Source: a virus. Taken from it: 64,000 nt of DNA. Below, in pieces: positions 24,399 to 45,300 of the stretch (its first letter is position 1; every line of letters begins with the position of its first letter). The notes beneath the pieces are model-generated. The model ran no database searches, was not told where the DNA came from, and saw nothing but the letters and a program-made list of their open reading frames with translations. The position numbers and the translations under genes are program-made. The stretch lies in IMG/VR virus record IMGVR_UViG_3300045988_158973, positions 1-64,000 of that record; one strand, given 5' to 3'.

Positions 24399-25886
24399 TT
24401 AGTTGGCGGCACGTCCGATGTTGATCAGACGAACCAGTTTCTTCGGCGCGTACAGGAACGGCGTACCGTACAGCAGCACCATGAAGCGGTACGCAGGCGA
24501 CAGAATCGCCAGGTCCATCTTCATCAGCGGGGCCAGCTGGGCGAACTCAATCACCTCGTTGTCGAACTGTACCAGGAAGGCCTGATCGCAGTCGGGCAGG
24601 AAGTAGTTGTTGTCGCGGCACAGGTCGCCGGCAGCGCCTGCGTAGCCCAGTTTCAGCTGAGCCACCGAGATGTCGAAGATCGGGTACAGTTTGCTGGTCT
24701 TGTCGCCACCCTTCTTCGAACGGTAGATACGATAACCCGTAGCCGGGTGAGCGTTGTCCACGATCGAGAACTTGAGGTCAACGACCGACCCCGCAGTCAC
24801 GGCCACCGGAGTCTCGTTCACCACCAGCGACGACTCGCCGTGGCGGTTGATGGCTGCGATAGCGTAGATGTAGTTGCCAGCGTCCTCCGAGTTGAACTTC
24901 GAGGTCGTCACGTCAGCAACAACCGTAGCCGGAGCGGCGGTGTCCCATACGGGAGCGGCGGGCGACTTGGGATGCGTCGACTGAGCACCAGCAACCTTGA
25001 ACGGAGCCTTCTTGAAGAAGACGTCGTAGTTGAGGCCGATGCGGCCGAACTGCGAGTCGAACGCCTGAACGCGCTGACCCATGATACCGGCGCTGGTCTG
25101 GGCGGTGTTGGGCTGGATGAACTTGTTGCCGTAGAACGTCTTGACGAAGTCCGAAAGAACGGCGGGGGGAGCATACAGCTCGGTTCCGAGGCCGTAGTTC
25201 TCGACGATCGAGTTGGCAGCCGTCTCGATGGGGTCCTCGGTCAGGCCACGACCGCGAAGGTCGATCACGTTATCAGAGTTGAGGTAAGCGTCCAGACCGC
25301 TCCATGCGTCCGACTGCAGCTGCTGAGCCAGCAGACCGTTGAACTCCTGCGGGATGATGTCCGAGTTGCCGTAGTACAGCGACTTGTTCAGTTTGCGGAG
25401 AATCCACAGCGTGCCGTCCTTGATGGTGCGCTCCATGATGTTGCCCACCATCGTGTTGACGAGGGTCATCTGGTGCGTAACGGACTTCGTAACGCCGAGA
25501 TACTTCACGAGCTGAGCCCGACGGATGTAGATCGAGTCTTCCTCGTCGGGGAGTTCGCCTTCGTTGGTGAAGCCACCGCGGTCAGCACCGTACGATGCCA
25601 GCTGGTTGTACTCCTCAACGGTGTTGTAGGCGGCCTTTTTCGGCAGGTTCTTCCAGAGAACGATGTCGCTCTCGCGGAACGTCAGATGTTTCAGAGTACG
25701 CTCCAGCGACTCCACCTTCAGCGGAGCACCCGAGGCATCGGTCAGGTTCGTCGTCTGGCGACCCGTGATGTCGGTTGCTTCGAGGGCTTTGTTCAGCGCA
25801 GCGACCTCTTCCTGACTGGACGAGCCGTACTGGGCACCACGCGCTTGGATGCCATAGTCGGCGAGATTGATAGAAAGTCTGTCCAT
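24399..25886 (-). CDS. major capsid protein (495 aa)
   Basis: Directly downstream of the protease/scaffold gene. Followed by the strongest terminator in the window. Size fits an HK97-fold capsid protein with an insertion domain. Synteny-based call. Confidence 0.65.
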   Translation of the reverse strand: MDRLSINLADYGIQARGAQYGSSSQEEVAALNKALEATDITGRQTTNLTDASGAPLKVESLERTLKHLTFRESDIVLWKNLPKKAAYNTVEEYNQLASYGADRGGFTNEGELPDEEDSIYIRRAQLVKYLGVTKSVTHQMTLVNTMVGNIMERTIKDGTLWILRKLNKSLYYGNSDIIPQEFNGLLAQQLQSDAWSGLDAYLNSDNVIDLRGRGLTEDPIETAANSIVENYGLGTELYAPPAVLSDFVKTFYGNKFIQPNTAQTSAGIMGQRVQAFDSQFGRIGLNYDVFFKKAPFKVAGAQSTHPKSPAAPVWDTAAPATVVADVTTSKFNSEDAGNYIYAIAAINRHGESSLVVNETPVAVTAGSVVDLKFSIVDNAHPATGYRIYRSKKGGDKTSKLYPIFDISVAQLKLGYAGAAGDLCRDNNYFLPDCDQAFLVQFDNEVIEFAQLAPLMKMDLAILSPAYRFMVLLYGTPFLYAPKKLVRLINIGRAAN

Positions 25887-25924: not shown

Positions 25925-27469
25925 TTACTCTACTACCTCGTACCCGGTTTCAGCCTTGAGGCGAGCGATAATGTTCTTGGGGAGACCGTCAGCGGGGCGT
26001 GCCTCAAACGCCAAAAGCGCATCACCGTACTCCTTGTCGTAGCCCTTGGCGAACGATGCCTGGTCGAGCAACGACGCAACGGCTTTCGGGTTTTCACGCA
26101 ACGAAATGCGAGTGGCGTTGCCGCCCTTCTCGATACCGTTGTCGGCGTTACCTTTCGCGAAGGCGCGATCAACCACCGTAGCCGAACGCAGCGACTTCGG
26201 CTGCGGCACCTCGCTGCCATAGCGCTCCAGTTTGGTGGAGAAGCCCTCGATGATCTCGGTCTGGCCCTTGATGATGTTTTCGAGTTCGCCGATACGTTTA
26301 GCGTCTTCGGCGCGTTTCTGGCGAAGATCGTTCACCAGTACGGCAGTAGCGCGAATGTACGACTTGAATTCGTCTCCAACACCATGAATAGCCTTCAGGA
26401 TGTCGTTATCGGCACCCTTCTTCATCTTGGCGCCGTTCTTGTCGCACTCCTCGAAACCCTCGTCGTCATCCTCGGTCTCTTCCTCAGATTCTTCCTTCTT
26501 GCCTGCAACGGCGTTCTTTGCGTTAGCGGCGTTGTGACGCGGCTCGTCGTCGTGGGTTTCGTCTTCCTTCCCCATCTGGCCATCAGCGTCATCGCCCTTC
26601 TGCACGTCCTCGGCATTGTCGGCTTTCTTCTCAGGAGCAAGCCCCAGAGCGTCATATGCCTTCTCGATGTCCTCGGAAGTGATGGATTTGCGTTTGTTCA
26701 TAACCGATATATTTTTGATTAAAGTATACAATTCTTGGGCGTTCGGTATTGTAATATTTGGAATGTCGCGGAAGATACATTCCATGACGGAAGATTTTGA
26801 AAACGTTTTCTTCGGTTGGCCGTCTACGGATTCAGGCATAAGCGCTGCGCCGGATTCAGTAGTTAAAGCCTTCTTTTCGGTCTTGCCGCCATGCTCTTCA
26901 GCGTTATCGTCCTCTTCTTCTAAATCTACCTCAATACCATCGGCGTCAACCTGACCTTTGATGATGTTGACGAACGTGTGAGGGTTCTTCGGCATGTGTG
27001 TTACAGCAACGCCTGTAATCACCGCCTTCACGATCTTGTTGTATAAGGGTGATTTCTTGTCGTTGGAAGCACGTTTTATAACCTTGCCTTCGATGGAATA
27101 TCCCAAGCGGCGTGTCTTGCTGTTTTCTTCGAGAGTTTTGGCTAACTCATATACCTCATTAGCCATAGGTGACGAAGCGTACAAATCACTCTCGATCCAA
27201 AGACCCTCGGGGCGCAGTTCTACTTTCGATGGTTCGCCGATGATTGCTGCAGGCGAGTTCTTGGCCTGATGGTGCCAGTTGACCATTCCCGACTCCTTCA
27301 AGGGCTGGATGTCGAAGCCTGACGGATCGAGTGTTTCGCCGTCAGCATCCTGATCGACGGTTGAAGCAATACCGCCGATGCGCATAACAGGTTCGCCTGT
27401 TTCCTCGTCGGTAGCCTTCTTTATGGGCTCGATAGGGCACCAAAAATTGAATTTATCGTCCTTAAACAT
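25925..27469 (-). CDS. prohead serine protease fused to scaffold domain (514 aa from Met at 27469)
   Basis: The N-terminal domain resembles HK97-type (S78/U35) prohead proteases (RIGGIASTVDQDADGETLDP...VNWHHQ...LGYSIEGKV). The C-terminal half is acidic and helical (EEEDDNAEE, EESEEETEDDDEGFEE), like a scaffold. I prefer the start at MFKDDKF (27469). The track start at 27559 would run through the left inverted repeat. Confidence 0.68.
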   Translation of the reverse strand: MFKDDKFNFWCPIEPIKKATDEETGEPVMRIGGIASTVDQDADGETLDPSGFDIQPLKESGMVNWHHQAKNSPAAIIGEPSKVELRPEGLWIESDLYASSPMANEVYELAKTLEENSKTRRLGYSIEGKVIKRASNDKKSPLYNKIVKAVITGVAVTHMPKNPHTFVNIIKGQVDADGIEVDLEEEDDNAEEHGGKTEKKALTTESGAALMPESVDGQPKKTFSKSSVMECIFRDIPNITIPNAQELYTLIKNISVMNKRKSITSEDIEKAYDALGLAPEKKADNAEDVQKGDDADGQMGKEDETHDDEPRHNAANAKNAVAGKKEESEEETEDDDEGFEECDKNGAKMKKGADNDILKAIHGVGDEFKSYIRATAVLVNDLRQKRAEDAKRIGELENIIKGQTEIIEGFSTKLERYGSEVPQPKSLRSATVVDRAFAKGNADNGIEKGGNATRISLRENPKAVASLLDQASFAKGYDKEYGDALLAFEARPADGLPKNIIARLKAETGYEVVE

Positions 27470-27505
27470 GTTTACGGCACTATTGTTACCACCGTTATAC
27501 TTGTA

Positions 27506-27955
27506 ATGGCGAATCGCGTTGGTACTTTCTCCGGCTCGACGAACGGAACTACTGCTCAATGGACAGAATTAGGCGGTGGCGGAGCAATTATATGGGAGGG
27601 TGAGGAGTCTTTGGTGGACGAAGGTCCGAAAACATTCAACTTCAATAAGACCTTGAAAGATGGTGATATTATATCAGTACTATTCGATATTAATACTGAT
27701 AATAATTTTAAGGTTACCGGATTTACTCAAAACCTAACCTTTCAAGCAATCGTTGGAGAGACCCTATCAAACGTTAATTATGTAGCTTTTTATGATGCCG
27801 GAGGTTCCTCAGGAGGCACTATAAGAGACATAGCCACCTTGCAAGTAGACTGCGGTACTTCCAGATTAATGATTACTACAAGGGGCGGCGAAATGACTCC
27901 TACGGCAAACAGATTTAGCATCAGAAGAATATATAAAGTTGCCAGCGGTAATTAA
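27506..27955 (+). other. silent alternative C-terminal cassette of the 597-aa protein (the only credible plus-strand coding segment)
   Basis: Reads through the left inverted repeat in the same codon phase as the expressed gene reads the right repeat (TFSGSTNGTTAQWTELGGG). The 124 codons after the repeat (27581-27952) are a divergent homologue of the expressed tip. No promoter context. Confidence 0.6.
27522..27580. repeat. left inverted repeat (IR-L) of invertible segment
   Basis: GTACTTTCTCCGGCTCGACGAACGGAACTACTGCTCAATGGACAGAATTAGGCGGTGGC. Its reverse complement occurs at 28397-28455 with 56/59 identity. Confidence 0.9.
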
Positions 27956-27985: not shown

Positions 27986-29779
27986 TTACTTACCGGAAAT
28001 ATTATAAACTCCGGTTATCGCGTATACTATCTCTGGTATATCTCCGTCTTGATTAAGATATAAACCAAAATCAATCTGACCCACGAGAACGTTTTGATCG
28101 TTCTCAAGGCACAACCCATAGAATGTCCCGGCCGAAAAATCGGTGTAAATCTCCTCCAGCGCTACTTGAAATGTAGCATGGTTATCTATAAGAGACGGAT
28201 TTATAATAGCCTGCCCCGCTACATGAAAGCTATTAGGGGTGCCCGTCTTTAACCAAGTTACAAGCAACACATCAGTACTCTTTATTTCGCGGGAAAGCGT
28301 AATAGTGGTCGTTCCACCCGACGTATTAACTAACGGGCACATGCTTAATGCTTGTTCGTCCCAAGTGGATATTTTCTCGAACGATGTTCCACCCGAGCCA
28401 CCGCCTAATTCTGTCCATTGAATAGTAGTTCCGTTCGTCGAGCCAGAGAAAGTACGGCTACCATCAGCCGTTTGGAGTAGATAGGTGTACGATTTTGTCA
28501 AAGAGTTCTTGATACAATGCCCGTAAAAGGCCGTACGAGTAACGCCCGAAGGTAGTCCAATGGCGTTGGCTAAAGCATATACGATCAAGCCTTGACCTGC
28601 GCTCAAGTTTTGTATGACTACATTCGTTGGGGCTACGAAGTTAGTCACCGTCACTTTTTGCGCCGCTTGACCTACCATGGCGACTCTTACTCCCGTCAGA
28701 TTCACAGCTCCGGTTGTTGCGTTAACAGCGATGCGGTGCATTTCAGCACCAAACGTTGAGCCAGTATCTACCGAAGGACAGGCGAAGACATAGTGATCGG
28801 TTTTACCGCTGTCTTGAGACCGAATAAAGTCTAATTGAATGTAGTCTGCCTGATCGGGGGTACTGAATACTAAGCGGAAGATATCGGCAACCTTAACGAA
28901 TTTCAAATCGCCAGTAGGCACATCCTTGTTTTCGGCGTATGTGAATTCGTACACCGAGGCTTCGATTCCCGTGGGGGTGCCAACAATAGACCAGTTCGTA
29001 TTGTAAATACTCGTAGACTGGTAAGTATACAGATACGAGCGTCTATAAGTATTGATTGAGGTAGAAGTGCCGACATATTTAACCGACAAAGCAGAAACTT
29101 TTACAGCATAACCTACCAACTCCGAACCGGGACCATTAGCAGCGTCAACGGCGCTTGTAAACGTGAACATCTCACCAACGGCAATATCACCAATCGCACC
29201 ATTACTGAAAGTGTTGCGGGTAAAATCAGTAACCGTCAGATATTTCATGGCGCTGCTGCTTCCGGCCCACTCCATCGTTACACCCAGACCGCCCCAATCG
29301 CCAGAAGCGGTCGAGTGAAGTTTCGTGATGATCGCTTCGTCAGTCAGTGTCTGCAGCGTAGGCCATGCCATAGCGACACTGGACGAAGGAATGACTCGGA
29401 TATAATCGTTCGTCAGGTGGAAAATCTGGAGGCCGTTCGTCCCCTGCGTCTCGGCATTCGTGCCCTGAATGATATTTACGATGAATGCCATTTCAGGTTT
29501 CCCGGACGCTCCGGTGGCGGGGTTGCCGGATACGATACGAAGACGGCCAATATTAGCCGCCGCCGTCAGCATCTCGAGCATACTGAGAAGTGTAGTCTTG
29601 TTATCGACGTACTTCAAACGGCTGTTGATAGGCAAATCACCCATATTCGGATTCTGCGAAAACGTCAACGCCGCAATCTGGCTTGTGTTAATCTTGTTGG
29701 ACTCAGAAACCTGAATTTCTTCTTGTCCGCTGGCCGAAGACTTCAGCGTCAACGCAGACATGTCAATAAAAGTAGGCAT
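27986..29779 (-). CDS. putative receptor-binding / adhesin protein with switchable C-terminal tip (597 aa)
   Basis: Intact ORF. The C-terminal 136 aa lie inside the segment bounded by the inverted repeats. No family motif recognised. The function is inferred from the invertible-cassette architecture. Confidence 0.55.
   Translation of the reverse strand: MPTFIDMSALTLKSSASGQEEIQVSESNKINTSQIAALTFSQNPNMGDLPINSRLKYVDNKTTLLSMLEMLTAAANIGRLRIVSGNPATGASGKPEMAFIVNIIQGTNAETQGTNGLQIFHLTNDYIRVIPSSSVAMAWPTLQTLTDEAIITKLHSTASGDWGGLGVTMEWAGSSSAMKYLTVTDFTRNTFSNGAIGDIAVGEMFTFTSAVDAANGPGSELVGYAVKVSALSVKYVGTSTSINTYRRSYLYTYQSTSIYNTNWSIVGTPTGIEASVYEFTYAENKDVPTGDLKFVKVADIFRLVFSTPDQADYIQLDFIRSQDSGKTDHYVFACPSVDTGSTFGAEMHRIAVNATTGAVNLTGVRVAMVGQAAQKVTVTNFVAPTNVVIQNLSAGQGLIVYALANAIGLPSGVTRTAFYGHCIKNSLTKSYTYLLQTADGSRTFSGSTNGTTIQWTELGGGSGGTSFEKISTWDEQALSMCPLVNTSGGTTTITLSREIKSTDVLLVTWLKTGTPNSFHVAGQAIINPSLIDNHATFQVALEEIYTDFSAGTFYGLCLENDQNVLVGQIDFGLYLNQDGDIPEIVYAITGVYNISGK
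28397..28455. repeat. right inverted repeat (IR-R) of invertible segment
   Basis: The reverse complement reads GTACTTTCTCTGGCTCGACGAACGGAACTACTATTCAATGGACAGAATTAGGCGGTGGC, differing from IR-L by 3 transitions. Confidence 0.9.
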
Positions 29780-29815: not shown

Positions 29816-30340
29816 TCACGCCATTATTTCAACGTGTATTGCAGGCTCGTTGGCGTCAATGGAAACTTTCGGGCTGTCGTACTTCGTATCACCTAACGGC
29901 GTGATAATTTTACGGCACTTTTCTTCTTTGGCCAACGCTTTGGTGAAGTCGCGTGGGTTTTTCATGCGGGTGATCGACAGGTCGATGATGTTGCACTGAC
30001 GGTACAACTCCTCCGTGGTACAATGGAGCGAAACACGTTGCCCCATTGAGGCTTGACGCTCGATTTCAGCTACCATCAGTTTCTCAACCTCAGACCGGGC
30101 CTGCTTTTTGCAGTTATCGTCAAAAACCTTCACAACAGCTGCACCGGGGGCGCGATAACGAATGCGCTTGCCGGCGTACAGGTTGTCGGCCATAGCCTTG
30201 GCCTGTGTTTCGGGGGTGCGCAGCGTGGAGGTAATGACGATATCGGGGTTGTTGGTATTATCGGCGACGCGGCTGATAAGGTCTTTCACCGTGTCGTTAA
30301 TCGCAAACGCCGACTTGTTAGCGTATGTAATATTTGCCAT
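29816..30340 (-). CDS. putative LAS-superfamily (M15-like) zinc peptidase (174 aa)
   Basis: The pattern ITSTLRTPETQ ... SLHC ... IIDLS ... AIHVEI resembles the SGxR...SxH...D...H arrangement of M15 DD-/LD-peptidases. Weak call made by eye. Confidence 0.35.
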   Translation of the reverse strand: MANITYANKSAFAINDTVKDLISRVADNTNNPDIVITSTLRTPETQAKAMADNLYAGKRIRYRAPGAAVVKVFDDNCKKQARSEVEKLMVAEIERQASMGQRVSLHCTTEELYRQCNIIDLSITRMKNPRDFTKALAKEEKCRKIITPLGDTKYDSPKVSIDANEPAIHVEIMA

Positions 30341-30734
30341 ACGGAATTGTGATTTTGAGTGCTTCTACACTGATTGAGTTCGTATTCATCCAATCCAGCA
30401 AGTAGTCCGACTTATCGGCATTGCTTAATTTTACAAAGTCCGCAGGCGTCACGGCGCGTTTCGCCAGGTACTCCTTGAATCCTTGTTCCATGAGGGCAAT
30501 ACGCTGCCCCTCCACGGCTACCTTCTGGAACAACGGCGACAACTCATCGAGAGTGAGAGTTTCCTGAATAGCCTTACGAAATTCCCGTGCGTCAATGTCA
30601 TTCAACATCGGGAATTCGCCGCGGAACGGTATAAGTTCCGACGGGCGTTTACGATCGATGTATCGCGACGCTGCGCCTCCTACAACGGAGGTCGTCAGAT
30701 TGCGCGGTACACCATATTTGCCTTTGCTTTTCAT
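30318..30734 (-). CDS. hypothetical protein (138 aa)
   Basis: Intact co-oriented ORF. No motif recognised. Confidence 0.4.
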   Translation of the reverse strand: MKSKGKYGVPRNLTTSVVGGAASRYIDRKRPSELIPFRGEFPMLNDIDAREFRKAIQETLTLDELSPLFQKVAVEGQRIALMEQGFKEYLAKRAVTPADFVKLSNADKSDYLLDWMNTNSISVEALKITIPYGKYYIR

Positions 30735-30737
30735 GGC

Positions 30738-33119
30738 TTATTTCCTTGTAATTATTTTCGAACGGTTGAACACGATCATGAACGAGTTTCCGCAGTGATT
30801 ACCGTTAGGCTGGATCATGGCGTCATAACCCTTCAACGCAGCGTATACACCCAATACATCGTCACACGATCGTGCGGCTTGATATATTCCGGCATAAATG
30901 TCCTTGTCGGGATTTCCGACGCTGTTGGTAGCCAATTTACGGGCTGCGTTACGCTTTTCTTGATAGACGCGGAAGGCGTCAGCGCGTTCCTTTTGAAGAC
31001 GGTTTACCTCGTCGTCGAGATTATTGACAGCCTCCTTGACAGCTTCTTCGATACGGCCGTAGTGCTCGCGCATGATCCATTCCTTAAACTGGCGGACGGG
31101 ATAGTTGTACGGACGTGAAAAGCCGCTTTTGCGCTTAATAGCGTTATTCTCGTACCGGTAACGCGAGAACAGAAAACGCTCCGTGGTATTCGGCATTTTG
31201 ATGACCAAATCACCACTGCCGTTATTCTTCTCGGTAATGGTACCGCCATTGGCCGTTACCCAGCCGCGGAGGTGGTTGTTCACGAAATCGTCAAATTTCA
31301 TATAGTCCGGGTTGCCGTCATCGTCGATAGCACCCCAGTCGATGATCTGATCAATCTGCAACGGGATGTCCTTGTAGGCAAAGTCGTCCCAATGCATGTT
31401 GGCCTTAACCTGCTTTTCGGTAGTGTCGGTTAGGGTGTTCAGTTCTTGAGACAACTTGTTGTAGTTATCCTCCGCGTCTTGCTGCTCCTTGAGAGCCTTC
31501 TTGGCTGCAGGAGAAGTGGTGAGCGACAGTTTCTGAATTTCATCACGAGCGTCTTGAACGGTAATCACCTTGGCGGAATCATCCAGTACAGCTTCGATGA
31601 CAGCCCCGTTGTAACCAGCGTAACAACGGGCGTTTTTGTAAGACGATGTGTGCTTGTACCCCGACGGCGTTTTATTGGCGTTATCAGAATCGTTGACGTG
31701 GAAATAGATTCCTTCGCCGTAAACGCTTTGCGTACCGTAGAAACACGCGTCGTTGTACTTGAAGTCGTCAGCGTAATATTCCGTATCGCTGCCGCGCGCA
31801 TTAACGCCACGGAACAGATGGTATTTTGACTGCGCCACCTTGGCCCAGAAGGTATTATCACCTACAACGTCAGGACGCACATCGAAACCGCGGGCCTTGC
31901 AAATATTGGACAGCATCTCCCATCCTACCTGATTATTGGTATTGGTTAACTTGTCCGCAGCACTGATTCCGCTGACGCTACTGTAGATTTCCGCCAACTC
32001 ATCATCGGTGAACTCGCGGTACATTTCCGCATCCGGTTTCAGAGTTCGCGGCGCAACCTTTCTTTGCTGGCGTTGCAACTCTACCTCGTACTGTCCTCTG
32101 ATGCGATCAAGGTCTTTGAAACGAGCCTCGATGATAGCACGCATCTTCGGTTTAGAGGCCAATTTACCAGCGTCGAAAAACGCCAACACCTCGTCTTTGC
32201 GTGCCTTTAAGGCGTCAATTTGGTTGATAAAATCCCGCGGCGTAAGGTTAGCTACAATCTGTGGGTTGTAGTGAACCATGCCGTCCCAGTCGATTTGACT
32301 GTTAAAAGGCTTATTGGCGCCTTGTGCTCGGTAGTCGAACGTACCGCCGTTATCCACGCGATAGACTTTGCCGGCGGCGTCAACCAAGCAGTTGTCATTC
32401 TGGTAGATATCCCAGTTGGCCAAAAAGGCATCAACGGCGAAGCCTTTGGCCATAGCGTCATAGTCCTTGGCCTGCGGCTCACTCATACCGCGCATGTACG
32501 GCGAAATAAGCGTCAAATCGGTTCCGTCGTCGTACATTTCATATTCTGGCGTGTCGAGCCCCAAGAGGTCATAAACCTGCGCGGCGTAGTATTCTGCAGC
32601 AACGTGACCGCGATTAGTGTTTTTAGAACTCTTGACGACAAACTCACGCCCTTTAGAGTCCTTCATGAGTTTGGCTCCAGTACTACCGCCGAGGTCCTGC
32701 ACATAGGTGAGGTCTGAAGGATCGGCAGGGAACATCTCGTTCAACTGCTTCTCTTCCTGAGCCAGCATGGCTTTAGAACGAAAGGCTCCTTTTCCAATAG
32801 GTTGGCCGTTGGCGGTCTTGTAAACTCGCCAGTCGTACGTCGTCTTGGCGTTAGGAGTCAGCGTCCAAATGTACACCACGCCATTCACGACCTTGGTCTG
32901 GCCAGGCATGATGGCTTTGGCTATCTCGGGGTCTTGATCGATACCGTGGATGTGGTCATACACCGATTTGGCGACGTACAGGTTGTACGAATAGTCGTCA
33001 GCAAAGTCTTCAGACCGCGCCTTATACGCTTCACACGCCTTCTCCAGTACGGCATCAGATATCTCGCCCTCAGCGTTACGGAGGGCGAAGACATCGAGTG
33101 CTTTTCTGAGTTCATCCAT
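30738..33119 (-). CDS. large two-domain protein: protein-kinase-like domain plus ADP-ribosyltransferase-like domain (793 aa)
   Basis: Kinase-like region, aa ~138-300: Gly loop plus Lys LGGSTGAKLMKDSKGREFVVK, catalytic-loop-like DAFLANWDIYQNDNCLVD, and DxG-like YRVDNGG. ART-like region, aa ~395-525: YHLFRGV ... YGTQSVYGEGIYFHV ... NGAVIEAVL. Confidence 0.5.
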   Translation of the reverse strand: MDELRKALDVFALRNAEGEISDAVLEKACEAYKARSEDFADDYSYNLYVAKSVYDHIHGIDQDPEIAKAIMPGQTKVVNGVVYIWTLTPNAKTTYDWRVYKTANGQPIGKGAFRSKAMLAQEEKQLNEMFPADPSDLTYVQDLGGSTGAKLMKDSKGREFVVKSSKNTNRGHVAAEYYAAQVYDLLGLDTPEYEMYDDGTDLTLISPYMRGMSEPQAKDYDAMAKGFAVDAFLANWDIYQNDNCLVDAAGKVYRVDNGGTFDYRAQGANKPFNSQIDWDGMVHYNPQIVANLTPRDFINQIDALKARKDEVLAFFDAGKLASKPKMRAIIEARFKDLDRIRGQYEVELQRQQRKVAPRTLKPDAEMYREFTDDELAEIYSSVSGISAADKLTNTNNQVGWEMLSNICKARGFDVRPDVVGDNTFWAKVAQSKYHLFRGVNARGSDTEYYADDFKYNDACFYGTQSVYGEGIYFHVNDSDNANKTPSGYKHTSSYKNARCYAGYNGAVIEAVLDDSAKVITVQDARDEIQKLSLTTSPAAKKALKEQQDAEDNYNKLSQELNTLTDTTEKQVKANMHWDDFAYKDIPLQIDQIIDWGAIDDDGNPDYMKFDDFVNNHLRGWVTANGGTITEKNNGSGDLVIKMPNTTERFLFSRYRYENNAIKRKSGFSRPYNYPVRQFKEWIMREHYGRIEEAVKEAVNNLDDEVNRLQKERADAFRVYQEKRNAARKLATNSVGNPDKDIYAGIYQAARSCDDVLGVYAALKGYDAMIQPNGNHCGNSFMIVFNRSKIITRK

Positions 33120-33125
33120 GGCTGG

Positions 33126-34883
33126 CTATTCGAACAACAGGGTTTCTGCCTTTTCGATCGACATTTCATCAACGTGGAGTGCGCCAAGATCAATCTCTTT
33201 GGCCTTCCACGTATCAGGGATCATGTCTTCAGCACCGAGTGTTTTGGCGCGACGCTTGATCCAGCGGCGAGCGCGTTCGGGGTTCTTAGCGTTGCCGGCG
33301 AGGCGGATGGCGTTCTTCAGATCAGACTTGTTGCGGATCGGGAACGAGCCGTCGGGGAGGGCCTCCTTTTTCTTGGCGAGTTTATCGCGCTGCTCTTCGG
33401 TGAAATCGGCCTTTTCGAGCGATTCTGCGCCGTTAAGTAACTGCTCGGCCTTACTGATCGCGTCGGAGGTTTCGATCGGTTGAATGGCCTCATACGCGAG
33501 ACTCTTCGTCAGCGCACGCACGGCACTCTTCTCCCACTCCTTTTGCTTCGCACCGATGAGGTTCGTCCACTCACCGCCCTGTTGGGCCATACGGTTAGAA
33601 CGTTCCGTAGAGCGTTTTTCTGACAGAATGGTACCGAAAGTACGGGTGGTAAACTTGGCGGGATCGATCTTATCCTTATTCTTGACGATCAAATCGAACA
33701 GCTCTTGGCGTTCGGCCTTGTCCTCTTCAGGATCGTCAAGGTGAGGTGCCTGAGGTACGTCCATACTGGCGAATCGGTCTTTTAGTACCTCGATAGTTTC
33801 ATCAACCGTCAGGTACACCTCCGACGAAAGCGTAGCGCGGCTGATGATAGCTTTAGTATCTTCGTTCTTGGCGAGGTTCACCAAGTCCTTGTTGGTCATG
33901 ATGATGATACGTCCCGTGAATACGAAATTCGACTTGACGTCTTCAGGGTCGCCGACGACGCGTTTACCACTGGCGGCAGTAGCTTTCTTCATGATAGAAG
34001 CCAGGTCGGCGCGGGCGATAACGGAATCGGTATCGTCGAACAGCAGAATCTTGCCGTTGTGGGCCTTGAGTACGCCCAACAGCTGCTTCTTGGAGTTGAT
34101 ATCACCAAGTTCAACGTAGTCATAATCGCCGTCGCCAGGGGCGTCGGTCTCAGCGTCAAACGGACGCTTGTTGAGCAGTTCGGCGATCTTCTTGAAACCG
34201 TACGACTTACCAACGCCTGCGCCTCCGGCCGAGATCATGAAGCGTTGCTCCTTGTTGTCCAAGAACTCCAGATACTGGCGGTTCAGGTCGTACATTACCT
34301 CAACGGGCGGCTGGTAGTCGGGGTCCTTACGCTTCATCTTGTAGACGAAACGGTCGTAGGCGATACGGTCTTGGCGGTTCTGGAGTTTGTTGAATTTCTT
34401 CTGAACACGCGGGTCCTCGGGGTTGAGGAACCAGTCTTCCATAATCTCGCCATCGACGTTTTCACCTTCGCCGTCGTTAATATCAACCTTGTCTTGGGCG
34501 TTAGTAGGCGCAACGTCGTCCTGCTTGGAGGTCATCTTCAGCAGCGCGTCGAGTGTACCGGAGGTATCAACAGCCGAAGCGTCGAATTCGTCACGCGTCT
34601 TCAACTCCTCATAGGCGATCTTACGCAACTGCGCGTTGCCCTTGGGGTTGTTTACTACTTTGAGCAGATTGTCTGCGGAGGTACGCTTGGCCCACTCTTC
34701 AAGGCTGGCGGAACCGCCAGCAGAACCCGATTTACCTTCGTCGGCGGCAGGAGCCTTCTTGTTCTTGGCGTTTTTGTCGAGACGCCAGTTAAACTTTCCC
34801 GGCTTGTATTCGGTCCAAACCCACGGCTGTGTAGGGTGGTGGTCGCCGACGTTGTGTTTTGCTTTTTGGATAATGTCTGACAT
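33126..34883 (-). CDS. AAA+/P-loop ATPase (585 aa)
   Basis: Walker A ISAGGAGVGKSYGF, Walker B KILLFDDTD, sensor-like RIIIMTNKD and ISRATL. The C-terminus carries the motif ALPDGSFPIRNKSDLKNAIRLAGNAKNPERARRWIKRRAKTLG. Confidence 0.65.
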   Translation of the reverse strand: MSDIIQKAKHNVGDHHPTQPWVWTEYKPGKFNWRLDKNAKNKKAPAADEGKSGSAGGSASLEEWAKRTSADNLLKVVNNPKGNAQLRKIAYEELKTRDEFDASAVDTSGTLDALLKMTSKQDDVAPTNAQDKVDINDGEGENVDGEIMEDWFLNPEDPRVQKKFNKLQNRQDRIAYDRFVYKMKRKDPDYQPPVEVMYDLNRQYLEFLDNKEQRFMISAGGAGVGKSYGFKKIAELLNKRPFDAETDAPGDGDYDYVELGDINSKKQLLGVLKAHNGKILLFDDTDSVIARADLASIMKKATAASGKRVVGDPEDVKSNFVFTGRIIIMTNKDLVNLAKNEDTKAIISRATLSSEVYLTVDETIEVLKDRFASMDVPQAPHLDDPEEDKAERQELFDLIVKNKDKIDPAKFTTRTFGTILSEKRSTERSNRMAQQGGEWTNLIGAKQKEWEKSAVRALTKSLAYEAIQPIETSDAISKAEQLLNGAESLEKADFTEEQRDKLAKKKEALPDGSFPIRNKSDLKNAIRLAGNAKNPERARRWIKRRAKTLGAEDMIPDTWKAKEIDLGALHVDEMSIEKAETLLFE

Positions 34884-34917: not shown

Positions 34918-35727
34918 CTACACTTCTACAGCGTCAAAGTCAATATCAAACTTCTTGTACACAATACGCAACTCCGGAACGCCGTTTATGGGTTTCTTCT
35001 TTTCGTCAACACGAGCGTTAAGCGGCCAACGCTTCAAGATAATATCGTGAGCACGCTGTACACGCTCTTGACGCTTGTATACGTCTTGAAGACCGCCGCC
35101 TTGAGTGGCTTCCTTGTTCATTTTGCTCTGGAGAAGGAAACGCACGAACCGCGCATACACGATACCGAGGTACATGCACTTCAACGAATAGTCGATATCA
35201 CACTTCAACTCCAACTTTTCGTCAAAATCCAGTTCCAGCGTGCGTAAGCCTTTGAACACGATGAGGTGAGGGATGCCGCCGTATTTGAAGCGAGGGCTGA
35301 CGTCGGTGCAGTTCCAGTCAAACGCGCTCTTCCCCATGGTCCCGTACTCGAAGTCGGTTTCCATGACTTCGCGGTTGAACTCTTCGAAGAATTCAGCCAA
35401 CTCTTCAGGGGTTTTCAACGAAAGCCCGCATTTGGCTTCGCCGTCAATCGAATAGAAGAAGTTGGCGATATCGTCATCCATGACCACTACCGGGCGCCCC
35501 TCGTGCAGATAGGTGTTCTTACAGAAATTGACTACATAGCTGTAGCCACGATTCGATGCCGGTAGCACGATAAGGCGTTCACGCTCGTGACCCGCTTCGA
35601 CGTATTTCTCGACGTCTTCTTTCTCGACTACGATGTGATAGTCGACGCCGCCCTTTTTCAGCAGTTTGGTCGTGACGCATTTAGGGCGGTTCTTGGACAC
35701 GACGAAGAATTGACAATTCATACTCAA
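34918..35727 (-). CDS. GT-A-like glycosyltransferase, copy 1 (269 aa)
   Basis: Rossmann-like start FFVVSKNRPKCVTT, DxD-type VVVMDDDIANF, and a C-terminal QGGGLQDVYKRQ...RWP. It is a paralogue of 53123..53938 and is reminiscent of TET/JBP-associated glycosyltransferases of phage DNA-modification loci. This was not verified by a search. Confidence 0.5.
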   Translation of the reverse strand: MSMNCQFFVVSKNRPKCVTTKLLKKGGVDYHIVVEKEDVEKYVEAGHERERLIVLPASNRGYSYVVNFCKNTYLHEGRPVVVMDDDIANFFYSIDGEAKCGLSLKTPEELAEFFEEFNREVMETDFEYGTMGKSAFDWNCTDVSPRFKYGGIPHLIVFKGLRTLELDFDEKLELKCDIDYSLKCMYLGIVYARFVRFLLQSKMNKEATQGGGLQDVYKRQERVQRAHDIILKRWPLNARVDEKKKPINGVPELRIVYKKFDIDFDAVEV

Positions 35728-36404
35728 AACGGTAAGTCACCCTCGTACCAAATTTCCTCGGGTGGGTTTTGTTCTATAAAACGTTGATATTTGTTCATCG
35801 TAGGCTCTAACGACGGATAAAAGCGCAGCGCCAGTTCCCACTTAACGTCGAACATATCGCCAACATCAACCCGGCGTTTCATCAACAAACTTTCGCTGCC
35901 GTAGCACTGGACTTGAATCTGGCTACAACCGCGGCGCGTGTACGAATACGGAAAGTCGCGATAGTATTCCGCCCCGGACGCCGTATCATACACCGTATCG
36001 TGCACAAACTGGTTGAAGGGGTTGCCTGCACCCAACGGCGCTAACAGGGTGTATCCGGGGTTGCGGCGCATAAACTTACGCAAATAATCGCGAAGCGTTT
36101 GTTCGGCGAAATTAAGCCCATCAGTCCCGAATTTAGCGCGAAGGTACATATAGACGCTTTCGTAGCTATAATCCCTGTAATGGGTCTTGAAATCGCTGCA
36201 ACGGACATCTTCTAACTCCAAGTCCAGACAGTCCGCGCCGATTCCCAGAAAATCGTACAATTTACGCTGTTCAGCGAGCGACGATGGCGCGTTATCAACA
36301 GTAAGCACCCGAACGTCGTATTCGGGTGCTACTAAAACGTGACAAGCGCTCATCAGGAGATCACCCGCGTGCGGCTCGACACAGAGGTACTTTATTTTTC
36401 CCAT
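35724..36404 (-). CDS. PIG-L/LmbE-like de-N-acetylase (226 aa)
   Basis: N-terminal KYLCVEPHAGDLLMSACHVL resembles the (A/P)HPDD zinc-binding motif of the LmbE/PIG-L family, with a later FVHD. 4-nt overlap with the downstream GT gene. Confidence 0.42.
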   Translation of the reverse strand: MGKIKYLCVEPHAGDLLMSACHVLVAPEYDVRVLTVDNAPSSLAEQRKLYDFLGIGADCLDLELEDVRCSDFKTHYRDYSYESVYMYLRAKFGTDGLNFAEQTLRDYLRKFMRRNPGYTLLAPLGAGNPFNQFVHDTVYDTASGAEYYRDFPYSYTRRGCSQIQVQCYGSESLLMKRRVDVGDMFDVKWELALRFYPSLEPTMNKYQRFIEQNPPEEIWYEGDLPF

Positions 36405-37351
36405 GGCCGTTTGTAAATCTTCTCAGCGCACGGGCCGTCCTTCGATACGTCTTCAGCCATACGGCGAATTTCAGGCGTAATAGGCGGCAGCGTTTTCTTG
36501 CCCATTTTGTCAGGCAGGAATCCGACGCGGACGCTGACGTGTGTACACCCTTGACACGGCCGGAAACGGCGGTCATTGTTGTACAGCATAACGCGAGCGG
36601 CGTGAAAACGCGGATGGTTCCAAAGGTCCTCGATAGGCATATCGTGGATATTGGCGATAGGGTATTCGCCGCGGAAGTCGTCACAGCACAGACACACCTG
36701 GCCATTCCAACGCACATCCAGTTCACGGAACGGGAAGGTACAGCGCTTGTTGTTGAACGAATCGTCGAGCGGGAACGCTGCACCGCAGTGATTGGCCAGG
36801 CGACGCGTCATCTTGTTGGTATCGTCTTCGGCGATAGGCGGCAGCAGGCAGATACGACGCCCCTGCTTGGGATAGTAGTACGGAACGCCCGGTTCCAGCG
36901 TGACGACGTTGTACTTTTCAACGTCGATCTTCTTGACGAAGTTCCAGTCGCCGTTGGCTGTGTAGCAGTCAACCAGTATGTCGTTCATGCCGGCCTCGAA
37001 CAGGCGGTCGAGGTACTCGGACGTGTCAGCGGCGTGGTTCATGGCGTAGCCGTTGCTGTACATATGAAATACGGCCTTCGGTAAGTGCTTGCGGAACGTA
37101 GCCACGATGTCGATGAACGCGGGGTTAAGCGTCGGCTCGCCGTGCATAGCGAACACGAACTTACAGTTCCACCCCACGCGTGCCACCTCCGAAGCAATAC
37201 GCTCGGCGGTTTCAACGGTCATGAAATTCCACGGTTTAGTCCCTTTTTCGCGCATACCGTGAAGACCACAGAACGAACACCCCAGATTGCACCCCTCGGT
37301 CGGCTCGATCTGCATGGTAAACGGGGGGTCTTGTACGATTTTGTTTTTCAT
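36392..37351 (-). CDS. radical SAM enzyme with C-terminal Cys-rich (SPASM/twitch-like) extension (319 aa)
   Basis: Canonical CxxxCxxC in EPTEGCNLGCSFCGLHG. Later Cys clusters are CTFPF...VCLCCDDF...RPCQGCTH. The start codon shares 1 nt with the MuF stop codon. Confidence 0.8.
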   Translation of the reverse strand: MKNKIVQDPPFTMQIEPTEGCNLGCSFCGLHGMREKGTKPWNFMTVETAERIASEVARVGWNCKFVFAMHGEPTLNPAFIDIVATFRKHLPKAVFHMYSNGYAMNHAADTSEYLDRLFEAGMNDILVDCYTANGDWNFVKKIDVEKYNVVTLEPGVPYYYPKQGRRICLLPPIAEDDTNKMTRRLANHCGAAFPLDDSFNNKRCTFPFRELDVRWNGQVCLCCDDFRGEYPIANIHDMPIEDLWNHPRFHAARVMLYNNDRRFRPCQGCTHVSVRVGFLPDKMGKKTLPPITPEIRRMAEDVSKDGPCAEKIYKRPWEK

Positions 37352-38283
37352 TATTTGGTAACTTTAATGTTAAGTTTCACGTTCTTTAACTTTGGGTTCT
37401 TGAATTGACGCTTAACTGGCTTGGTGAAGGCGCGTGTTGCGGGGTCCCATTCGAAGCCGTCAGGAACGAAGTTGATCGTACACCGACAGTAGGGGTGCGT
37501 TGGGTCAATCGTCGGGAGCCATTCAGCTACTTTGCGTCCAATATTGTTACCGTTGGCAATAAGGTCTGCCAAGCGGAACAGTTTCGGCTTTGAGTTGAGG
37601 TCTTCAGGGTCTTCCAAGTACAATTCACGACATTTGGCACACGCGCCGGGGTAAACGTCGAAATACACCTTGGCGTCAGGGCCGTGTTGCTTGAAAATAC
37701 TTTCAGCGCGGCCTACATTGTAGGCTTCATGGAGAAGGTAATACGCAATACGCAGCCAATCACGCCCCCAGTCTTGGGTAAGGTTCCCCAGTTCGCTGGC
37801 TATATACCGCGCTCCCTTACGGAGTTGAACGGCTTGAATGGCCTTGTCTTTGATTTGCTGGCGTATTGCCGATTGCTGACGAAAGTTCGACTTGAGTACA
37901 GCGTTGCGCGTTCCGGTGACGATCCGGTTGCCGAGCGACGTGATGTCGGTATAGGCGCGGTTCTTGAGGTAGTTCAGCGCGTTTTCTTCCTGTTCAGTGA
38001 GTGGAACGAAGTTTCCCGATTTCAAGAACTGGAGAAACTGCTTGTAGTTCATCTTCTTGGCGCGTGTGTCACCGATTGCTTCAGCTAAGATTCCAAACAA
38101 AAAGGCGTGTTCGATGATACCCTTTGAGTTCTTGTACTTATCGACGTTGACGCCCGACGCTACCAAGATATCAATTTCAGACTGCGTAAGGTAGTCCAAT
38201 CCGACGTGTTTGGCAATAAAGAGATACTGCCAACGTCGGAGAATACCGACCATGTCGTCTATTTGGCGGTTGTTGAAAATCAT
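37351..38283 (-). CDS. MuF / SPP1 gp7-like minor head protein (310 aa)
   Basis: C-terminal signature PGACAKCRELY...LPTIDPTHPYCRCTINFVP is typical of the Phage_Mu_F family. Confidence 0.72.
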   Translation of the reverse strand: MIFNNRQIDDMVGILRRWQYLFIAKHVGLDYLTQSEIDILVASGVNVDKYKNSKGIIEHAFLFGILAEAIGDTRAKKMNYKQFLQFLKSGNFVPLTEQEENALNYLKNRAYTDITSLGNRIVTGTRNAVLKSNFRQQSAIRQQIKDKAIQAVQLRKGARYIASELGNLTQDWGRDWLRIAYYLLHEAYNVGRAESIFKQHGPDAKVYFDVYPGACAKCRELYLEDPEDLNSKPKLFRLADLIANGNNIGRKVAEWLPTIDPTHPYCRCTINFVPDGFEWDPATRAFTKPVKRQFKNPKLKNVKLNIKVTK

Positions 38284-45042: not shown

Positions 45043-45300
45043 TTAGCGTGAATATACGTAGGTAGCGCGGTCGGCCCACACGAAATTGTAACTCATGTCG
45101 CCAATGGGGTATTCGGTGATGGTGATTCCGTCGGCGGTAGTCTCACGCTCGATGCGCCACCCGGCTTCGCCTTGGCCCGTACCGATGGGGGCATAGCCGC
45201 GGTAGATCACGCTGCCGCCGGAAGCGTCGATGATAGGCTTGGGCATAGCGTCAGCCAACAGCTGTACGATGGGCGCGGTGTTCTTCTCGTTACTCGTCAT
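45043..45300 (-). CDS. hypothetical small protein (85 aa)
   Basis: Intact co-oriented ORF overlapping the portal stop by 11 nt. Confidence 0.4.
   Translation of the reverse strand: MTSNEKNTAPIVQLLADAMPKPIIDASGGSVIYRGYAPIGTGQGEAGWRIERETTADGITITEYPIGDMSYNFVWADRATYVYSR

Follow-up and report, generated by a model that had tools for sequence, protein, structure and literature searches.

A head-module gene of human-gut phages predicted to encode a kinase-fold and ADP-ribosyltransferase-type effector

The gene and its neighbours

The window analysed here comprises the first 64,000 nucleotides of the IMG/VR virus record IMGVR_UViG_3300045988_158973. On its minus strand, at 30738..33119 including the stop codon, lies a gene for a 793-aa protein that a preliminary description had proposed to combine a protein-kinase-like domain with an ADP-ribosyltransferase (ART)-like domain. 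The gene is genuine: its reading frame translates without internal stops, and 118 homologues were found, about 110 of them full length, with more than 100 full-length orthologues residing in phage contigs of approximately 95–125 kb. It is present at 77 viral-contig loci, and one cluster at 90% identity holds 836 sequences. The homologue search found no full-length orthologue in cultured phages, and the cultured capsids nearest to the clade are from Bacteroides phages. Every motif string quoted in the preliminary description occurs in the translation at the position given for it.

Directly upstream (33126..34883, minus strand) is a 585-aa P-loop NTPase, identified through translation and synteny, with a Walker A motif (GGAGVGKS) and a Walker B motif (LLFDD); it had no Pfam match and no PDB relative. 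Directly downstream (30318..30734, minus strand), translation and synteny define a 138-aa ORF, for which we found no family match and which we speculate could be a chaperone or neutralizer. Further downstream, in the same transcription direction as the target gene, are the genes for the prohead protease/scaffold (25925-27559, minus strand) and the major capsid protein (MCP; 24399-25886, minus strand), assigned by PHROG 1028 and 752 and Pfam SU10_MCP. A MuF/gp7-like head gene lies at 37351..38283 (minus strand), recognized by a CAKC...HPYCRC motif and by a position that is kept in relatives; the 310-aa ORF had no Pfam match and no match to a MuF HMM derived from eight MuF domains that Pfam validates. 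Hence, the proximity to MuF and head genes that was first described is right for the head context, which is strictly conserved, but the MuF gene failed both profile tests and is identified by motif only. The order MuF-like gene ... P-loop NTPase, target, 138-aa ORF ... protease/scaffold, MCP is kept in 18 of 18 loci, and the target gene is a fixed member of this head-morphogenesis block. The phage, of ~100 kb, is abundant in the human gut, and the gene belongs to the core of its head module. DNA-modification genes (TAGT and radical SAM) are also among its neighbours.

Pfam, PHROG and PDB sequence searches gave no matches for the 793-aa protein, and profile searches of the PDB, run with an alignment of the full length and with one of the N-part, returned nothing. 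We assessed conservation in 33 orthologues (33–98% identity) and structure in a full-length AlphaFold model with a mean pLDDT of 88. Conservation and secondary structure delimit an N-terminal domain at aa 1–105 (32805..33119, minus strand), consisting of three helices and a small beta unit, with the conserved motif PGQTKVVDGV.YIYT.TPNAKT.YDWRV in the orthologue alignment. Among 323 fetched proteins, matches to an HMM of aa 1–105 were confined to family members, and this domain is a candidate head-incorporation module. In the alignments, a conserved linker follows at aa 355–380 (31980..32057, minus strand; PR.LK..AEMYREF..DEL), of which R358, M366 and Y367 are invariant.

The kinase-fold domain

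Foldseek and BFVD searches, weak HipA matches and motif conservation together define an atypical protein-kinase-fold domain at aa ~127–350 (32070..32741, minus strand), and on the structural model this region almost certainly adopts the protein-kinase fold. When the full-length model was searched against the PDB, the top 50 matches were all of kinase fold (probability 1.00, E 4e-5 to 2e-3), the best being the ThurKC kinase domain (4e-5) and AmiN (5e-5), with RNase L, PAK1, PKA and PI3K/PI4K among the others. The same model searched against BFVD recovered kinase-module proteins, viral kinases and PI3K.

The motifs comprise a G-loop (143–149), K163, E176, D230/N235, D237, D242-N243 and D256-N-G-G, carried by GGSTGAKLMKDSKGREFVVK at aa 144–163, DAFLANWDIYQNDNCLVD at aa 230–247 and RVDNGG at aa 254–259. 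Across the 33 orthologues K163, E176, D230, N235, D242 and G258 are invariant, and conservation reaches 90% or more at GGSTGA (144–149), D237, N243 and R254-V-D256-N. The pattern extends to 16 distant carriers of the module with unrelated architectures, all of which keep K163, E176 and D237, with near-invariance of the G-loop, D242-N243 and D256. The kinase-like fold proposed at the outset is thereby borne out, both by Foldseek matches that are exclusively of kinase fold and by catalytic motifs kept in very distant carriers, and the domain is likely to be active.

Sequence matches hint at where the module belongs. Sub-threshold Pfam matches to HipA_C (9/33 members) and HipA_2 (6/33), with best E values of 0.005–0.008, point faintly toward HipA-like kinases; none of the 33 members reaches the gathering threshold of either model, the target itself has no HipA match, and weak actin-fragmin-kinase matches also recur among the members. 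With HipA-family and PI3-PI4-kinase-like Ser/Thr kinases the domain has in common the kinase fold, a Gly-rich loop followed by Lys, a D-x4-N-type catalytic segment and an Mg-binding Asp further downstream. However, its signature, NWD-(x4-8)-DN-phi-L-phi ... V-D-x-G-G, is not that of HipA and stays below every Pfam threshold, and the module sits in a phage head context whereas HipA occurs in toxin-antitoxin pairs. It differs from 'Kinase-PolyVal' in having no Pfam match, in keeping the C-terminal helices and in the replacement of the HxD catalytic loop by NWD. Elsewhere the module occurs in fusions with MuF and with ARTs of PF01129 or PF03496, and across phages it shares a polypeptide with three different ART clades.

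The ART-type domain and its insertion

The second domain is, by profile comparison, a single domain split in two: an N-terminal part at aa ~394–535 (31515..31940, minus strand) and a C-terminal part at aa ~753–793 (30741..30863, minus strand). Both parts were delimited by hhalign to a family of compact relatives and by alignment to ART-PolyVal, the N-terminal part also by 770 relatives. In compact stand-alone members the two parts are contiguous, and the target aligned to the compact family with E 2.4e-32 for the N-part and 6.9e-16 for the C-tail. The N-part contains RGFD.RP.VV, strand 1 with R437, strand 2 (GEGIY472F), a helix with A497..Y500 and strand 3 (AVIEAVL); the motif strings LFRGV, QSVYGEGIYFHV and AVIEAV occupy aa 435–439, 464–475 and 506–511. 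In the C-part, G.YAALKGY-D766-AMIQ forms strand 5 and NSFMIVFNRSK strand 6. R437-G438, G470 and Y472 are invariant in the 33 orthologues, as are G757, A761, G764, D766, N785, R786 and K788 of the C-part, and R437 is also invariant across 29 compact relatives.

The alignments thus identify the putative triad as R437-Y472-D766, with Arg taking the place of the strand-1 His. Most of the wider family likewise has Asp at this strand-5 position, and in a few compact relatives the residue is E, N or Q. The preliminary description had instead assigned the catalytic Glu to E509, which conservation rules out: most orthologues have K, S, N, F, L, D or Q at this position, and it is likewise unconserved across the wider ART-type family. 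We also dropped a reading in which the C-terminal NSF-MIVFNRS was the degenerate ExE strand of a dead ART, because the compact relatives and the ART-PolyVal alignment put the acidic residue at GYD766.

Between the two parts lies an insertion of ~220 aa (aa ~536–752; 30864..31514, minus strand), delimited by secondary structure and by the absence of this length in compact relatives, which have just ~20–40 residues at the site. In the full-length model it forms two long helical hairpins around a small alpha/beta unit (aa ~595–672), a middle unit that an HMM test found to be family-specific. The insertion occupies the site, between strands 4 and 5, of the substrate-recognition loop of canonical ARTs, and distant kinase+ART relatives carry different inserts there. 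We infer a role in target recognition or oligomerization.

A profile of aa 352–535 matched 770 proteins, which are stand-alone, MuF-fused, associated with NUDIX or arranged in arrays of 3–5 copies. This is a large family of at least 770 members without a model in curated libraries. For comparison with ART-PolyVal, a region-restricted protein search gave only 3 matches, and the reference profile consisted of 9 sequences from phage records, anchored on the PF18760 match in the RPP1 vRNAP. The compact family aligned to this profile with a probability of 91.4% (E 9e-7), and a merged profile with the target as master with 93.6% (E 2.1e-7); the latter matched R437 to His, Y472 to Y/F, A497..Y500 to A..Y and D766 to the strand-5 Asp. 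With the target family alone, just the C-part aligned (E 2e-4, 47%), so the link to ART-PolyVal runs via the wider family. Pfam searches with the target and its 33 orthologues found no PF18760 match. Relatives had sub-threshold ART-PolyVal and PARP Pfam matches (E 0.0017, 2.3e-5 and 0.0024), with a score of 25.6 bits against an ART-PolyVal cut-off of 31.2 in one case. Among the weak PDB profile matches, 26 of 29 fell on the tankyrase PARP signature region (E ~1), in agreement with the earlier remark that YGxGIYF is PARP-like.

Structure searches were less informative for this domain than for the kinase. The model of isolated aa 352–535 lost most strands and its best fold match had E 3.1, a weak negative because the model covered half of a split domain. 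The full-length searches of PDB and BFVD were filled by kinase matches, and the order of strands and helix in the full-length model fits an ART core. Taken on the profile alignments, the two parts very probably constitute an ART-superfamily domain, for which homology to the H-Y-D 'ART-PolyVal' clade is supported at superfamily level; the chance that it is an NAD+-dependent transferase we put at about even. Of the original ART-like assignment, superfamily membership therefore stands by way of the ART-PolyVal profile link, and the R/H-S/Y-E type and the extent of aa 395–525 do not.

Among the closest described systems is ART-PolyVal/Tox-ART-HYD2 (PF18760; prototype, the Roseovarius Plymouth podovirus 1 vRNAP), with which the target has a common order of elements: phi-[H/R]-G in strand 1, G-x-[Y/F] in strand 2, the A..YA helix, GYD-phi-phi in strand 5 and phi-phi-V in strand 6. 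Multi-copy arrays are formed both by the target's ART-type family and by ART-PolyVal (P0322). In contrast to ART-PolyVal, the target family has a strand-1 Arg where the clade-defining His stands and adds an N-terminal RGFD.(K/R)P.VV and a conserved LNR at strand 6, and the target itself carries the ~220-aa insertion. The NAD-site signature of the PARP catalytic domain (PF00644, tankyrase), G-x-G-I-Y-F ... [S/A]..Y, also aligns with the target, and the spacing from the strand-1 residue to the signature is about the same, 35 residues in the target and 34 in PARP1. However, the target has Asp instead of the catalytic Glu of PARPs, Arg for His and no helical regulatory domain. Features of R-S-E ARTs (PF03496, PF01129) were not found: there is no STS, no ExE/QxE and no Pfam match, and GxGxY and GYD are present in their place.

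A candidate virion-carried effector

Enzymes carried in the capsid can rewire the host ahead of any phage gene expression, and T4 Alt, an R-S-E ART that is packaged and injected, is the textbook case. Comparative genomics predicts many more such effectors, of which, to our knowledge, nearly none has been tested. Polyvalent proteins are head-packaged, injected and rich in ARTs and kinases (PMC5512222, PMC9503650), and MuF-fused toxins of phages have been described by Jamet et al. 2017 (PMC5576092). Two disparate effector domains on one polypeptide that is encoded with head genes, the hallmark of polyvalent proteins, are what we find here, and the combination of kinase and ART with head genes is that of the polyvalent/MuF effectors (Iyer et al. 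2017 PMC5512222; 2022 PMC9503650). In contrast to those effectors, the target is the product of a core gene that stands apart, at a distance of ~4 kb from the MuF-like gene, and has no virion-anchoring domain: Pfam and the MuF HMM detected no MuF, portal or other known virion domain in the 793-aa protein. In other phages, relatives of both domains occur joined to MuF, portal or NUDIX domains; MuF fusions make up about half of the compact-family matches, giant proteins combine MuF, NUDIX and the ART-type domain, and the pair of kinase and R-Y-D domain also occurs in other architectures. Bxa of Bacteroides stercoris, an ART of MuF type from a prophage, is accompanied by two immunity proteins, Bsi and BAH (PMC11699363). 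Like the target, T4 Alt and Bxa are phage ARTs tied to a virion or head module, although both are R-S-E ARTs without a kinase. By analogy with Bxa, which small adjacent partners can restrain, the invariant 138-aa neighbour might play a comparable part.

We favour, with a probability of roughly 0.6, a two-enzyme effector made with the head proteins. The 793-aa protein is probably a virion-carried host-modifying effector, and for packaging and delivery in the virion as such the odds are slightly better than even. The strategy is known for phages and is here built from two undescribed domain families. The protein would be loaded into the prohead, perhaps via its family-specific N-terminal domain, and would enter the host cell along with the DNA. 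There, the kinase domain would phosphorylate one or more host proteins with ATP and the ART domain would move ADP-ribose from NAD+ onto a host macromolecule, with target recognition provided by the ~220-aa insertion. Before packaging, the effector may be handled or held in check by the products of the two flanking genes, the P-loop NTPase and the 138-aa protein. The gene unites two families from outside the curated libraries, a HipA-like kinase module that often travels with ARTs and an ART-type family that carries the H-Y-D site in a form with Arg. Once defined, the substrates of both domains would reveal by what means gut phages seize or disarm hosts of the Bacteroidota type. They would also put names to the 'hypothetical' tails of MuF fusions, which number in the hundreds to thousands, and test for a functional link between phosphorylation and ADP-ribosylation.

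It is fairly unlikely that the protein stays unpackaged and acts late in the producing cell (cf. T4 ModA/ModB), or on head proteins or phage DNA at assembly. Such a role would suit a polypeptide without MuF, portal or other head-anchoring domain, and TAGT and radical SAM genes lie nearby besides the head genes, but the position between the MuF-like gene and protease/scaffold-MCP is constant in all 18 loci, both domain families are typically MuF- or portal-fused elsewhere and the conserved N-terminal domain could serve incorporation.

Less likely still is that the kinase is the sole enzyme and the ART-type domain a non-catalytic derivative with an NAD+/ADP-ribose-binding, protein-binding or structural role. 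The strand-1 His-to-Arg change would fit this, although Arg at this position is also typical of R-S-E ARTs, where it is the usual NAD+-binding residue. The same reading would account for the lack of a curated ART model above threshold, the half-domain model of aa 352–535 without an ART fold match and the N or Q in place of Asp in a few relatives. However, among 770 proteins so divergent that identity averages 18% in a diverse alignment, R, Y and mostly D are kept, as is typical of an active or ligand-binding site, and the NUDIX association fits NAD/ADPr chemistry. Arrays of 3–5 copies are unusual for a simple enzyme, but ART-PolyVal forms multi-copy arrays too (P0322; PMC5512222).

That the two domains instead serve counter-defence, with nucleic acids or small molecules derived from NAD+ as their substrates, for example by ADP-ribosylating DNA or RNA or by intercepting ADPr-based immune signals, we regard as doubtful. 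Many packaged NAD/ADPr domains have been argued to counter host NAD+-dependent immunity (PMC9503650), and fusion of the ART-type family with NUDIX in giant MuF proteins fits such a role. Against it, the Pfam matches of 29 relatives at E<=5 contained no DarT/DUF4433 signal, and the nearest kinase families (HipA-like and ePK) are protein kinases.

Within the favoured two-enzyme effector, we give little credence to a stronger version in which kinase module and ART form an obligate two-step cassette, assembled at least three times, with the PF01129, PF03496 and R-Y-D clades. Both enzymes may then act sequentially on the same host target, or the kinase may have the ADP-ribose mark or its donor as substrate, for example so that the modification could not be reversed or the ART would be licensed only once ejection has occurred. 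The R-Y-D family would in that case be an undescribed, very large ART clade with specificity set by the strand 4/5 inserts.

An R-S-E, Alt-like ART limited to aa 395–525, with R437 and E509 as catalytic residues, is highly improbable: LFRGV recalls the aromatic-Arg strand 1 found in R-S-E ARTs, and elsewhere this kinase module does share a protein with genuine R-S-E ARTs (PF01129, PF03496), but E509 is not conserved, the STS and ExE/QxE motifs are missing, the domain needs its C-terminal 40 residues, the PARP signature is matched in the PDB and the profile aligns to the H-Y-D ART-PolyVal with D766 at strand 5.

A conserved gene with a multidomain product

The 793-residue protein is encoded by one uninterrupted ORF on the minus strand (30738–33119), and its translation contains every string quoted in the preliminary description at the claimed residue and nucleotide positions. 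A search of 5.8 billion proteins returned 118 homologues, approximately 110 of them full length (33–98% identity, on contigs of about 95–125 kb); 77 IMG/VR loci carry a homologue, and a single 90%-identity cluster of the family has 836 members. No full-length orthologue was found among cultured phages, and direct sequence searches of Pfam, PHROG and the PDB gave no match. Two proteins in the 90% cluster of the relative P0002 (P0279 and P0280) are labelled ‘methionine synthase II (cobalamin-independent)’ in NCBI and JGI/IMG records, which is clearly a propagating mis-annotation.

With 33 orthologues as input, AlphaFold gave a confident full-length model (mean pLDDT 88.1), from which, together with the orthologue alignment, domain boundaries were drawn. 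A family-specific N-terminal domain (residues 1–105) is followed by a kinase-like domain (~127–350), a conserved linker (355–380) and an alpha/beta region (~394–535). Two long helical hairpins (537–592 and 673–734) are separated by a small alpha/beta unit (~595–672), and the protein ends in two helices and three strands with strong conservation (741–793).

The kinase-like domain

The kinase-like domain proposed from the sequence alone proved to be real. All of the best 50 PDB matches of the full model in Foldseek are protein-kinase-fold proteins, headed by the ThurKC lanthipeptide-synthetase kinase domain (4e-5) and the amicoumacin kinase AmiN (5e-5) and also including RNase L, PAK1, CK1, PKA, BTK and PI3K/PI4K. 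In a viral structure library the model first matches one family member, then large phage proteins that have the kinase module alone in common with it (among them a portal fusion, proteins of Gordonia phages and some with an ADP-ribosyltransferase annotation), and after these viral Ser/Thr kinases and PI3Ks. A lenient Pfam scan of the 33 orthologues touched HipA_C (9/33), HipA_2 (6/33) and actin-fragmin kinase (2/33), all below threshold.

The motifs are kept both in orthologues, where K163, E176, D230, N235 and D242 are invariant and GGSTGA, D237, N243 and R254-V-D256-N nearly so, and in 16 distant carriers with unrelated architectures. In these carriers, which include MuF fusions, proteins with an N-terminal kinase and an ADP-ribosyltransferase (ART), and Pseudomonas phage Dolphis gp117, K163, E176 and D237 are invariant, with near-invariance of the G-loop, D242-N243 and D256. 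Judged from sequence, this conservation pattern is that of an active phosphotransferase. N243 and D256 are 13 residues apart, the same spacing as between N171 and D184 of PKA. Iyer et al. (PMC5512222) described a ‘Kinase-PolyVal’ type; the modelled module differs in retaining helices beyond the DxG segment, and Pfam gives no Kinase-PolyVal match for the protein or the 33 orthologues. On both grounds, the module is not of that type.

A split ART-type domain

The preliminary description had also proposed an ART of the R/H-S/Y-E arrangement with R437 and E509. By profile comparison with ART-PolyVal (Pfam PF18760) the superfamily is supported, but the details differ: the domain is split, the triad is R437-Y472-D766 (R-Y-D), and E509 is not conserved (K, S, N, F, L, D or Q in other orthologues). 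R437-G438, G470 and Y472 are invariant in the orthologue alignment.

An exhaustive search of 1.84 billion representatives with a profile of residues 352–535 (E ≤ 1e-3) yielded a family of 770 proteins. Its architectures comprise stand-alone proteins of 160–300 residues, C-terminal domains of MuF proteins (about half of the matches in one search), giant MuF+NUDIX proteins and arrays of 3–5 copies. The giants P0139, P0140, P0147, P0148, P0158, P0160, P0163, P0170 and P0196 carry 3–5 tandem R-Y-D copies, some such giants also having ADPrib_exo_Tox, GNAT, zeta-toxin kinase or MuF, and they parallel ART-PolyVal arrays such as P0322, a protein with five ART-PolyVal copies.

In compact relatives, which have both halves contiguous, the N-part is followed after approximately 20–40 residues by ‘G.YAA..GYDAI ... 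[FY].VVLNR’, a segment that forms the C-terminal tail of the protein studied here. With hhalign, its N-part matches the compact family at E 2.4e-32 (template columns 45–171) and its tail (residues 736–793) at E 6.9e-16 (columns 193–231). Since both halves match, the domain comprises residues ~394–535 and ~753–793, interrupted by ~220 residues. A separate model of residues 352–535 matched no structure (best E 3.1), which we attribute to its covering only half a domain. The insertion lies between strands 4 and 5, a position occupied in canonical ARTs by the substrate-recognition (ARTT or acceptor) loop; its middle unit is family-specific, and three more distant kinase plus R-Y-D proteins (P0151, P0161 and P0185) are split at the same point by unrelated sequence. 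It may serve target recognition or oligomerization.

Of 29 weak PDB matches obtained with the compact-family profile, 26 are to the catalytic domain of tankyrase PARPs, and in each of these the alignment falls on the NAD-site signature G-GMFGAGIYFAE...SNQY. The Pfam families touched by 29 compact members are headed by ART-PolyVal (three members, best E 0.0017) and PARP (two members); the four-copy P0139 has sub-threshold matches to ART-PolyVal (2.3e-5) and PARP (0.0024). Our ART-PolyVal reference profile held nine sequences: the prototype, located with PF18760 in the virion RNA polymerase of Roseovarius Plymouth podovirus 1, and eight authentic additions from N4-like roseophages, a crAss-like phage, other phages and one metagenomic protein. 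This profile is matched by the compact family at 91.4% probability (E 9e-7, 109 columns) and by a 55-sequence profile, headed by our protein with the insertion removed, at 93.6% (E 2.1e-7); when the protein’s own family is used by itself, only the C-part aligns (E 2e-4). The 55-sequence alignment pairs R437 with the strand-1 His, Y472 with the strand-2 Tyr/Phe, A497..Y500 with the A..YA helix, AVIEAVL with strand 3, D766 with the strand-5 Asp and FMIVFN with strand 6. As Iyer et al. (PMC5512222) define the ART-PolyVal clade by a His in strand 1, a Tyr in strand 2 and an Asp in strand 5, and the His is Arg here, the family is an Arg variant.

Three ART clades each occur in proteins that carry the kinase module: PF01129-type ARTs (in P0114 and P0116), ADPrib_exo_Tox (in P0118, Dolphis gp117 and an E. 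coli phage protein of 2253 aa) and the R-Y-D family (in the present protein, P0151, P0161, P0180 and P0185).

In crAss-like phage cr130_1 (NC_055901.1), gp80, a hypothetical protein of ~2070 aa, has an ART-PolyVal-type domain (VVYHGS ... GFYFT ... QGYDSVLF ... VRIVFNPNQIK) whose C-terminal strands closely resemble those of our protein. Enterobacter phage EspM4VN has a stand-alone ART-PolyVal-like gene (gene_89) that diverges abruptly from its counterpart in Salmonella phage pSal-SNUABM-02 just upstream of the GYD strand, which suggests a frameshift or sequencing error.

Head-module position and proposed role

The surrounding genes all lie on the minus strand. Upstream are the large terminase (53958–56675), the portal (45290–47050), a 310-aa ORF identified as MuF-like by motif only (MuF/gp7-type CxxC...HPYCRC; 37351–38283), a radical SAM/SPASM gene, a 226-aa ORF and a TAGT glycosyltransferase (34918–37351) and, directly adjacent, a 585-aa P-loop NTPase (GGAGVGKS, LLFDD; 33126–34883). 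A 138-aa ORF (30318–30734) follows immediately downstream, then a 174-aa ORF (29816–30340), a 597-aa ORF (27986–29779), the protease/scaffold (25925–27559) and the major capsid protein (24399–25886), which has its nearest counterparts in Bacteroides thetaiotaomicron DAC phages (49%), followed by SPO1/Twort-type myoviruses. The order from the MuF-like gene through NTPase, kinase–ART gene and 138-aa ORF to protease/scaffold and capsid is invariant in 18/18 related loci (orthologue identity 36–98%), with gaps of a few bases on either side of the kinase–ART gene.

The MuF-like neighbour, which carries CAKC...HPYCRC, scores against neither Pfam nor a custom MuF HMM; in the related loci L030 (2051–4078), L058 (1805–3940) and L068 (950–2656) its homologue sits within a far larger ORF. 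The NTPase has no Pfam or PDB relative, and in several relatives (L057, L058, L063, L064 and L071) a second paralogue lies upstream of the MuF-like gene. The 138-aa ORF has no family match.

The analysis shows two conserved catalytic-type domains, each with relatives fused to virion proteins, and a fixed head-module position. In the proposed mechanism, the protein would be made late, loaded into the prohead and delivered to the host along with the DNA, where it could phosphorylate host targets with ATP and ADP-ribosylate them with NAD+, with the insertion as a putative determinant of specificity. The products of the two adjoining genes, the NTPase and the 138-aa protein, may be partners that handle or restrain it, the latter being a candidate chaperone or neutralizing partner, by analogy with Bxa, which is paired with immunity proteins (PMC11699363). 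The strategy itself is already known, with T4 Alt and the polyvalent and MuF-fused effectors as precedents; neither the curated libraries nor the papers searched describe the kinase module found here, an R-Y-D family of ARTs, an ART domain split in this way or a stand-alone (non-MuF) core-gene format.

In the related phage locus L012, a reverse-oriented fragment (13136–13945, minus strand), 90% identical to part of the window’s 597-aa protein, adjoins the forward-oriented homologue of that gene.
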